24,000 bases of DNA, from positions 266,770-290,769 of the forward strand of contig NZ_JBJHDO010000009.1 of assembly GCF_050958605.1 (NCBI RefSeq), given 5' to 3'. The notes beneath the pieces are model-generated. The model had not been told where the DNA came from and ran no database searches. It was given only the letters and a program-made list of their open reading frames with translations. This document shows, piece by piece, positions 6,912 to 7,616 of this stretch. The stretch is from Mesorhizobium sp. 1B3 (GTDB lineage: Bacteria > Pseudomonadota > Alphaproteobacteria > Rhizobiales > Rhizobiaceae). Made by a program: the position numbers and the translations under genes. Each line of letters starts with the position of its first letter. Positions within the stretch are counted from its first letter, which is position 1.

Positions 6912-7616
6912 ATGGCTACTTTCTCTAACAACACCAGACTGGATTATCTTGATCGTGTTGCGATTGCCATTTTGAACGAAGGCCACCGAATGATGGCCGA
7001 TAAGGCGCCCATCGGGAAAAAGACCGGATCGCCTTCCCTAAAGACAAGTGATGCGACGCTTCGGTGCGTCGCGGTCATGGAAATCGGGGCGACCTTATTA
7101 ATCGCCGCCAACAATTTTTTTGTAACCAAACAGCACCTCGCGAACATAGGATCTAGAAGCAAAAATACTCTTTGGAAAGATCACAATACTGTAAAGAATA
7201 ATTTGAACAAAGGAGATCCGATAGCAGATAGCAATTTGGAATTGTTTGATATTTTTTCTGCAACCTCTGAAGATTCCCGAAACAGACTTGGTTATGATAG
7301 AGCGATTTTTGTTACTGGCGTTCACACCTACATGAATAATTACCATGCAGAAATGCAACTACTCCAGTTCATGCTGGATCACAAGCTCAAGGCGCACCGT
7401 CGATACATCGGAGTATCAAAGCCCTGCTGCCCTGAATGCGCCGCTGTTCTCAAGCGTGCACGCATCTCCTTTTCGGAGGGGCACACCAAGAACGCCCATG
7501 GCGTACGAAATGTCGCCAATGAAAACTTCTCGCATCCACATTTCGCTTCGGACCTGGCCGAGCGGCTAGGACTCGAGGTCTTGTCTGGTGGTGGAGCCAG
7601 AGAGGCACCATGGTAA
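6912..7616 (+). CDS. Orphan zinc-dependent nucleic-acid/nucleotide deaminase-like protein (cytidine-deaminase-fold superfamily; possibly OTT_1508-like clade)
   Basis: 234 aa ORF with a good RBS (GAGGAA 6901-6906, 5 nt spacer). H145-A-E147 (nt 7344-7352, context YHAEMQLLQF) is followed after 23 residues by P171-C-C-P-E-C176 (nt 7422-7439, context YIGVSKPCCPECAAVL). This is the canonical H[AC]E...PCxxC deaminase zinc/catalytic signature with canonical spacing. No signal peptide or N-terminal trafficking domain is recognisable. Local GC is about 32% by hand count over 7141-7260. Confidence 0.6.
   Translation: MATFSNNTRLDYLDRVAIAILNEGHRMMADKAPIGKKTGSPSLKTSDATLRCVAVMEIGATLLIAANNFFVTKQHLANIGSRSKNTLWKDHNTVKNNLNKGDPIADSNLELFDIFSATSEDSRNRLGYDRAIFVTGVHTYMNNYHAEMQLLQFMLDHKLKAHRRYIGVSKPCCPECAAVLKRARISFSEGHTKNAHGVRNVANENFSHPHFASDLAERLGLEVLSGGGAREAPW

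Follow-up and report, generated by a model that had tools for sequence, protein, structure and literature searches.

An apparently intact, solitary OTT_1508-like deaminase gene of foreign base composition in Mesorhizobium sp. 1B3

Introduction

The OTT_1508-like deaminases were described by Iyer, Zhang, Rogozin and Aravind (2011; PMC3239186), in whose Table 1 the clade is defined by a GxxK motif that precedes CxxC, and whose account adds that the loop following strand 4 is extended and bears a conserved polar residue, mostly His, as well as an aromatic-x-x-P motif. The clade is further described by the topology of the helix-4 division (strand 4, helix 4 and strand 5 in parallel) and by a degeneration towards the C-terminus. 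According to the same source, toxins of this type are delivered by type VI secretion systems (T6SS), type VII secretion systems (T7SS) or Photorhabdus virulence cassettes (PVC), and versions lacking an immunity gene are aimed at eukaryotic hosts. The present study deals with a gene of this clade, located at positions 6912 to 7616 of a 24,000-nucleotide stretch of DNA from Mesorhizobium sp. 1B3 (the whole stretch is referred to as the window), which an earlier note based on the letters of the sequence had singled out as an exceptional orphan. On balance, we regard the gene as an intact, horizontally acquired one for a small zinc-dependent nucleic-acid deaminase that is solitary by nature and may well act on a substrate whose modification is harmless to its producer.

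The only experimentally characterized OTT_1508-like enzymes are the fungal OLD proteins, and PMC12754623 assigns to those of Neurospora the adenosine-to-inosine (A-to-I) editing of a premature UAG codon in the mRNA of the adjacent zao gene (Honda et al., 2025, as cited there) and to OLD-1 and OLD-2 a function in antiviral defence as part of an OLD-ZAO module. In an in-vitro screen of 175 deaminases (10.1101/2023.06.29.547047), activity on cytosines in DNA was confined almost entirely to five other families; OTT_1508 is unmentioned in the main text, and the screen says nothing on its substrate in either direction. No experimental work on a bacterial member of the clade was found in the literature that could be searched. 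The promiscuous DNA deaminase toxins described so far, such as DddA and SsdA, come with adjacent immunity genes; SsdA is part of a T6SS effector, whose C-terminal domain it forms, and has a cognate immunity protein. In the literature, SsdA is treated as a bacterial toxin of interbacterial antagonism.

Results

Sequence features and family membership

The open reading frame (ORF), the HAE and PCCPEC motifs with their spacing of 23 residues (between E147 and P171) and the ribosome-binding site reported in the earlier note were all reproduced. The features of the gene are as follows.

6912-7616, plus strand: complete coding sequence of the deaminase with ATG start, 234 amino acids (WP_433643296.1, Mesorhizobium sp. 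1B3; from the ORF listing)
6901-6905, plus strand: Shine-Dalgarno-like GAGGA, 6 nt before the ATG (direct sequence reading)
7110-7112, plus strand: codon of N67, an Asn at the end of predicted strand 2 (residues 61-67), invariant in the 54-sequence alignment A3
7113-7343, plus strand: residues 68-144, an insert of about 77 residues that separates strand 2 from the HAE helix in the AlphaFold (AF2) model
7344-7352, plus strand: H145-A146-E147, predicted zinc-binding His and catalytic Glu, invariant in alignments A2, A3 and A4
7410-7421, plus strand: G167-V-S-K170, the clade-defining GxxK motif of OTT_1508, with G167 and K170 invariant
7422-7439, plus strand: P171-C172-C173-P-E-C176, with invariant cysteines, C173 and C176 being the predicted zinc ligands
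7482-7484, plus strand: H191, conserved polar residue in the loop after strand 4, invariant in A2
7527-7538, plus strand: F206-S-H-P209, aromatic-x-x-P motif in the strand-4/helix-4 loop, with F/W-x-x-P at the same place in relatives and low model confidence

The translated protein is 100% identical to WP_433643296.1, which carries the NCBI name 'nucleic acid/nucleotide deaminase domain-containing protein'. An in-frame TGA at 6900-6902, 9 nt before the ATG, rules out an N-terminal extension, and the start is conserved, as the N-terminus MA(T/V/S)FS is common to the homologs. As the earlier note had claimed, the protein is free-standing: it consists of a single domain, no signal peptide is present in its 234 residues, and no partner gene is found in the window.

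A search of Pfam places the protein in PF14441 (OTT_1508_deam) with 43.4 bits against a gathering score of 27 (E 3.5e-11, residues 145-193), next to weak matches to dCMP_cyt_deam_1 and to an AID/APOBEC-like family, while none of the NCBIfam, PADLOC (E up to 10) or PHROG models match. The motifs which Iyer et al. (2011) list for the clade are present in the sequence as G167/K170, H191 and F206-x-x-P209. All 54 aligned relatives match PF14441, and 27 of them also match PF00383 (dCMP_cyt_deam_1; best E 2.8e-5), with others matching Bd3614, XOO_2897 or APOBEC-type deaminase profiles. Invariant positions across these 54 diverse sequences are N67, H145, A146, E147, M148, Q149, G167, V168, K170, C172, C173, C176 and L180; both the HxE pair H145/E147 and the CxxC pair C173/C176 are thus retained in all of them. 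The resemblance to the OTT_1508-like clade, named in the earlier note, is therefore borne out by the Pfam profile and the clade motifs, and the HAE and cysteine residues that it had proposed to check in homologs are conserved across this set. With high confidence, the protein can be assigned to the OTT_1508-like members of the deaminase superfamily.

Catalytic core and predicted fold

A core-only profile (A4), which begins with the strand preceding HAE, ends with the loop that follows CxxC and was built from 55 sequences, was searched against all sequences of the Protein Data Bank (PDB) and gave 11 matches, 10 of which are deaminases of the cytidine deaminase (CDA) fold. The best were the dCMP deaminases 2hvv (E 5.7e-4) and 1vq2 (1.6e-3), followed by SsdA, ADAT2, TadA and APOBEC3G/3B. 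In the alignments to 2hvv and 1vq2, HAE falls on HAE and C173 and C176 on the two zinc cysteines, with C172, an extra invariant Cys, taking the place of the Pro found in canonical deaminases. N67 is presumably equivalent to the Asn that contacts the substrate sugar in TadA and APOBEC enzymes.

A second AlphaFold (AF2) model was built from the 54-sequence alignment and reached a mean predicted local distance difference test (pLDDT) value of 80.9 and a predicted template modelling score (pTM) of 0.82. It shows a helix (12-31), a hairpin (52-58/61-67), the insert, a helix (146-156), a strand (165-168), a helix (174-182) and a further short strand, an order of elements compatible with the three-layer alpha/beta/alpha CDA fold, in which H145-A146-E147 and the CxxC motif lie at the N-termini of the helices 146-156 and 174-182, respectively. 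The insert comprises three predicted helices and one strand (130-134); its length varies across the family, and it coincides with the part of the window gene that is lowest in GC.

The SsdA motif (PDB 7jtu / 9c63), when set against residues 167-176, hints at a closer link of OTT_1508-like to DYW-like/BaDTF2 deaminases than the names of the two clades would imply.

A rare clade of solitary genes under purifying selection

Close relatives of the protein are rare. A word-indexed search of 5.8 billion proteins retrieved only 9 relatives, the close ones being 36-67% identical and all about 230 amino acids long, and the clade of the window protein amounts to about 8 sequences in this collection, all of them solitary. 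In an exhaustive profile search of 1.84 billion representatives, 328 sequences reached E ≤ 0.001 and no more than 3 reached E ≤ 1e-30; of the best 150 among these 328, the majority are 150-260 amino acids long. Metagenomes scanned for further contexts of the close clade returned only a contig that had been found before, and no relatives were detected in IMG/VR viral contigs or among the PHROGs. A sister clade from Telluria, Longimicrobium and metagenomes contains proteins of about 260-400 (mostly about 310) amino acids.

When bacterial relatives with the GVSKPCCxxC motif were collected from one genome per species, 30 of the 34 resulting loci were short stand-alone ORFs (154-403 amino acids). 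The other four encode proteins of about 1,800 amino acids in Zooshikella spp. (L016, L025, L026) and Chitinimonas sp. (L038), in which the deaminase domain is located near residue 260-315. A solitary arrangement is therefore the norm in this branch, and the premise of the earlier note that the gene is an exceptional orphan does not hold.

No partner gene emerged from the comparison of the loci. In the close-clade loci L001, L004, L006 and L010 the next gene is convergent and the upstream genes are mutually unrelated, and the long sister-clade contexts L049, L050 and L051/L052 are likewise solitary; no neighbour is common to these loci and the window. Neither an immunity gene nor a secretion gene nor any other conserved partner was found in the seven independent contexts of clade and sister clade, which answers the earlier note's call for a neighbourhood comparison in the negative. 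An all-against-all clustering of neighbouring ORFs from 41 loci (the window and 40 homolog loci) revealed no universal neighbour, and neither flank of the deaminase gene is conserved across the homolog loci. The window itself contains none of the features of polymorphic toxin systems that were looked for, namely a secretion or trafficking domain, an upstream full-length toxin gene and a downstream immunity gene; the gene upstream is an HNH pseudogene on the other strand. Downstream, the deaminase stop and the ATG of a transposase gene are separated by 217 bp, of which only 69 bp lie outside the insertion sequence (IS), whose left end is at about 7686, and the absence of an immunity ORF from this gap, as stated in the earlier note, was confirmed. 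Because no partner exists across the clade and sister-clade contexts, the IS did not displace one, and we conclude with good confidence that the solitary state is an ancestral trait of the clade and did not arise through the IS.

A 26-codon ORF (7611-7691, plus strand, MVRTEDPDKGACQTSSNSGRCCEPPI) was noticed whose ATG overlaps the deaminase stop (ATGGTAA) and which runs up to the edge of the IS. No homolog locus contains a counterpart, and the interpretation of this ORF as a truncated, translationally coupled gene is unsupported, given this and the lack of flank conservation; it is probably a chance open frame.

Within the close clade, the proportions of synonymous differences (pS) are saturated at 0.55-0.91, those of nonsynonymous differences (pN) range from 0.24 to 0.46, and dN/dS values are 0.16-0.45 where computable. 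Invariant residues combined with a low dN/dS are what an active family of enzymes shows when it is under purifying selection. Since the catalytic residues are invariant and the clade has been under long-term purifying selection, the window copy is no obvious relic, which speaks against the inactive relic considered in the earlier note.

Two further observations concern the wider family. The metagenome-assembled genome (MAG) JAZJYH01 (Pseudomonadota) harbours two family members on separate contigs, a 240-residue protein of the close clade (L012) and a 201-residue protein (L039) from the branch that includes the T6SS-embedded proteins described below. Relatives of about 165 amino acids from gut Bacteroidales and Lachnospiraceae MAGs (L009 315-779; L033, L034, L037, L041) are adjoined by DUF2589 genes, often in two copies together with a conserved 260-residue ORF, which may constitute a partner module specific to that branch.

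Base composition and genomic surroundings

The GC content of the gene amounts to 31.7% at 7141-7260, 36.9% at 7090-7360 and 56.7% at 7400-7616, compared to 63.4% for the whole window, in agreement with the value of about 32% and the rise after about 7400 given in the earlier note. The GC content at third codon positions (GC3) is 0.51 for the gene versus 0.68-0.91 for 13 neighbouring genes, and drops to 0.36 in codons 60-150 versus 0.59-0.62 at both gene ends (Fisher p = 3e-4, for segments chosen post hoc). Homologs in GC-rich contigs keep a GC3 of 0.63-0.97 across the gene, so the low GC is specific to the window copy and not due to the amino acid sequence. The whole gene looks imported, its centre most strongly, which upholds the earlier suggestion of an import. 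A test for an empty insertion site, in which other assemblies were queried for the identical solute-binding protein of the flank, gave no records.

The 2.9-kb patch that holds the gene extends from the last porin gene (ending at 6401) to a solute-binding-protein gene (9300-10334) and matches plasmid records only via its IS. The other neighbours in the window are ordinary chromosomal genes for an amidohydrolase, three Porin_2 paralogs, an ABC transporter, a second amidohydrolase and a fatty-acid oxidation enzyme, and no tRNA or Rfam family was found in the window. The elements around the deaminase gene are the following.

2472-3632, 3886-5085 and 5250-6401, plus strand: three tandem Porin_2 paralogs, 64-81% identical in register at the nucleotide level
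about 6385-6815, minus strand: phage-type HNH endonuclease pseudogene with a frameshift near 6755 (three-frame translation; PHROG HNH E 5e-12)
about 7686-9169, plus strand: degenerate ISMlo5-like ISNCY element, 84% identical to many rhizobial plasmid copies (NCBIfam ISNCY 461 bits)
7834-9168, plus strand: ISNCY transposase gene, interrupted at 7979-7981 by an in-frame TAG that corresponds to GGT or GAT in intact copies

For the third porin gene, the listed GTG start at 5127 is probably too far upstream, as the similarity to the other two genes begins at about 5259. The HNH pseudogene has its N-terminal part (MALTGEQKRP...) and its core (FYKDPRW...HKIAHKSD...) in different frames, and its 3' end overlaps the porin stop by 17 bp. 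No right inverted repeat of the ISNCY element was detected when it was searched for, and the similarity to intact copies ends just past the transposase stop; the element is dead. A composite transposon delimited by the equally long ORFs 2472-3632 and 8005-9165 was considered and rejected, the first being a third tandem porin paralog. The TAG codon at 7979-7981 was also considered as an editable stop by analogy with the OLD-ZAO module, but intact ISMlo5 copies encode Gly or Asp (GGT/GAT) and not Trp (TGG) at this position, and the analogy is therefore unsupported.

Relatives associated with secretion systems

Three distant, stand-alone relatives of 167-214 amino acids are embedded in T6SS core clusters, with positions given in the respective locus.

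L014, 5944-6555: relative from Chromobacterium alkanivorans
L023, 5689-6192: relative from Xanthomonas translucens
L030, 5941-6585: relative from Pseudomonas cuatrocienegasensis

These clusters contain TssF/TssG, ClpV, small ORFs, the deaminase and VgrG or FHA, and no immunity gene is common to all three. In a rough neighbour-joining tree, the T6SS-embedded proteins are not close to the clade of the window protein. One of the giant relatives, that of Zooshikella, is named 'C80 family cysteine peptidase'. Both groups, and the relatives adjoined by DUF2589 genes, fit the toxin theme of Iyer et al. (2011).

Discussion

If the favoured interpretation of an intact, solitary deaminase is followed through, H145, C173 and C176 would hold the water-activating zinc ion and E147 would shuttle the proton, as the alignment to solved deaminases suggests, whereas the sugar of the substrate may be contacted by N67. 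The reaction would be the zinc-activated hydrolytic deamination of a base within a polynucleotide, and the helical insert of about 77 residues may cap the pocket together with the loop after strand 4 (H191, FSHP) and set the choice of substrate. Horizontal transfer would have brought the gene, as a single-gene unit, into the GC-rich Mesorhizobium chromosome, where it lies in a patch of dead mobile DNA between porin and ABC-transporter genes. Because the clade is kept under purifying selection without an immunity gene, its members should not be promiscuous DNA mutators in their own cytoplasm; the same maintenance favours a producer-harmless substrate, with RNA of narrow specificity as leading candidate. 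The narrower proposal of RNA or another self-harmless target is put forward tentatively. Of the alternatives raised in the earlier note, that of a stand-alone nucleic-acid deaminase thus stands, except for the qualification as an undescribed type, since the family has already been described and annotated and its immunity-less versions were noted in 2011.

Several findings weigh against this interpretation. The model is unreliable beyond about residue 190 (pLDDT 37-64), where no strand 5 is predicted and helix 4 is not established. Foldseek gave no significant match in the PDB with either model or in BFVD with the better one; for the second model no match at E < 1 was obtained in 350,542 PDB chains or in BFVD, and the best deaminase was 1tiy at E 8.9. 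The full-length family profile had 0 matches among PDB sequences, and hhalign comparisons of A3 and A4 with Escherichia coli TadA gave the right register at non-significant E values of 0.065-0.33, TadA being represented by a single sequence and then by a 110-sequence alignment of low diversity, as the TadA search gave close relatives only. The evidence on the fold is thus mixed: the catalytic core is well supported by sequence, the global fold is without structural confirmation, and of the structural check proposed in the earlier note the order of elements came out as compatible, the comparison with solved deaminases without a significant match. The absence of a Foldseek match despite the aligned core could reflect real structural divergence or a limit of Foldseek with large inserts. 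In addition, the gene lies among pseudogenes, and no sigma-70-like promoter match was found upstream of its start codon. Genes of this kind do decay, as indicated by the 64-66% identical homolog L004 (314-1086, ENA contig_26710), which is split into ORFs of 164 and 93 amino acids and reads KPSCPEC, with a Ser in place of a Cys; this reflects either decay of the copy or an error in the assembly of long reads. The T6SS-embedded relatives have to be counted on the same side, as do the giant C80-peptidase relatives, which look like secreted self-processing toxins. Finally, the preference for RNA was derived from two arguments, the missing immunity gene and a distant fungal precedent.

The main rival is an exported effector toxin, i.e., an orphan cargo that a T6SS or a different secretion system would direct at eukaryotic or bacterial targets, which would need no adjacent immunity gene if it were inactive on the nucleic acids of its producer or acted on eukaryotes. 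Precedents exist in the stand-alone relatives within T6SS core clusters, in the domains of the giant Zooshikella and Chitinimonas proteins and in the T6SS-, T7SS- or PVC-delivered and immunity-less, host-aimed OTT_1508-like toxins (PMC3239186); the GVSKPxCxxC core motif is shared with the T6SS toxin SsdA, and a low GC content and a neighbouring IS are what acquired effector genes typically show. However, no T6SS, vgrG, hcp, PAAR or other secretion genes occur in the seven contexts of clade and sister clade, the T6SS-embedded proteins belong to a different clade of the tree, the 24-kb window is ordinary housekeeping DNA devoid of a T6SS, vgrG, hcp or PAAR locus, and besides the missing signal peptide, a scan for tts-box-like promoters produced chance-level matches only, none of them near or upstream of the gene. 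Export is rather unlikely, and less likely than an action harmless to the producing cell.

It is even less probable that the gene is a non-functional passenger, open but silent or decaying, which was stranded amid dead mobile DNA. Such a fate would agree with the flanking HNH pseudogene and the nonsense-bearing IS without a right end, with a codon usage not adapted to the host, with the missing promoter match, with the frameshifted L004 and with the extremely rare and patchy occurrence of the clade. On the other hand, the ORF is full-length and retains all family-invariant residues, a good ribosome-binding site and the conserved start, the dN/dS values across the clade are well below 1, and the unadapted composition indicates a recent arrival that left little time for silent decay.

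A function as an anti-phage or abortive-infection deaminase of a defence system could be seen in the sporadic distribution and horizontal spread, in the adjoining phage-type HNH remnant and in the antiviral role attributed to the fungal OLD proteins (PMC12754623), but is very improbable in view of the absence of any PADLOC match, of adjacent defence genes in the contexts examined and of homologs in IMG/VR viral contigs or PHROGs. Equally improbable, and largely refuted by the comparative context, is the suggestion of the earlier note that a polymorphic-toxin cassette was left stranded when the IS took the place of its immunity gene: the IS begins 69 bp past the deaminase stop, the 26-codon ORF overlapping this stop reaches the IS edge, and adjoining DNA could have been deleted together with the missing right end, but close homologs have no coupled or conserved downstream gene, the 26-codon ORF is without counterpart elsewhere and of a length that would be expected by chance in GC-rich DNA, there is no full-length toxin gene upstream, and, in contrast to orphan C-terminal cassettes, the protein begins at a start codon of its own behind a ribosome-binding site and has a conserved N-terminus.

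For the annotation of the 1B3 genome, the solitary deaminase described here is an ordinary finding. As a small immunity-less member with an intact catalytic centre, it offers an entry point to the questions of the substrate (RNA or DNA, C or A), of its harmlessness to the producer and of the Foldseek mismatch, and compact deaminases of new specificity are wanted as base-editing and sequencing reagents. A demonstration of RNA editing would raise the interest sharply. We consider it a long shot that the rare solitary clade consists of site-specific RNA editors (A-to-I or C-to-U, in mRNA or tRNA) acting inside their own cells; if true, these would be bacterial counterparts of the OLD editors, would join TadA as a second kind of RNA editor in bacteria, and would provide a compact, naturally non-toxic scaffold of 234 amino acids with a confident model lacking a Foldseek match to solved structures.

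Comparison with known systems

With SsdA (the BaDTF2/DYW-like single-stranded DNA cytosine deaminase toxin of Pseudomonas syringae, PDB 7jtu) the window protein shares the local GVSKPxCxxC motif and the character of a small bacterial deaminase domain; the match spans 26 residues only (E 0.064), and the toxin, T6SS and immunity features of SsdA are not applicable to the window protein. The T6SS-embedded relatives are likewise single-domain proteins, L014 and L030 showing 27-30% identity over most of the length and the same invariant residues, while the match of L023 is limited to the catalytic core; they differ by their position between clpV and vgrG or FHA, as the window clade has no secretion genes nearby and branches separately.

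The dCMP deaminases and TadA/ADAT2 (2hvv, 1vq2, 7nz7) align in register over the helix-2/strand-3/helix-3 core with matching HAE and CxxC motifs. In contrast to them, the window protein contains the 77-residue insert, the extra invariant Cys for the canonical Pro and an apparently divergent or degenerate C-terminal half, and no global similarity is detectable by Foldseek. OLD-1 and OLD-2 belong to the same Pfam family and have the same catalytic motif, as judged from their description, and neither they nor the window protein form a toxin-immunity pair; no zinc-finger (ZAO) gene is found near the window deaminase, which sets it apart from the fungal module.

As to the OTT_1508 clade (PF14441) itself, its profile threshold is passed and its HAE motif, GxxK before CxxC, His and aromatic-x-x-P are all present, along with the sporadic distribution driven by horizontal transfer that applies to both. 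The helical insert between strand 2 and HAE is listed by PMC3239186 for fungal members only, and the stress there is on toxin modules at the C-terminus, which come with secretion domains and immunity genes, or on endosymbiont effectors, whereas the window protein, like the majority of its GVSKPCCxxC relatives, is short, single-domain and partnerless. A stand-alone existence is thus the rule in this branch, with a minority in T6SS clusters or giant toxins, which corrects the impression left by the classification of 2011.

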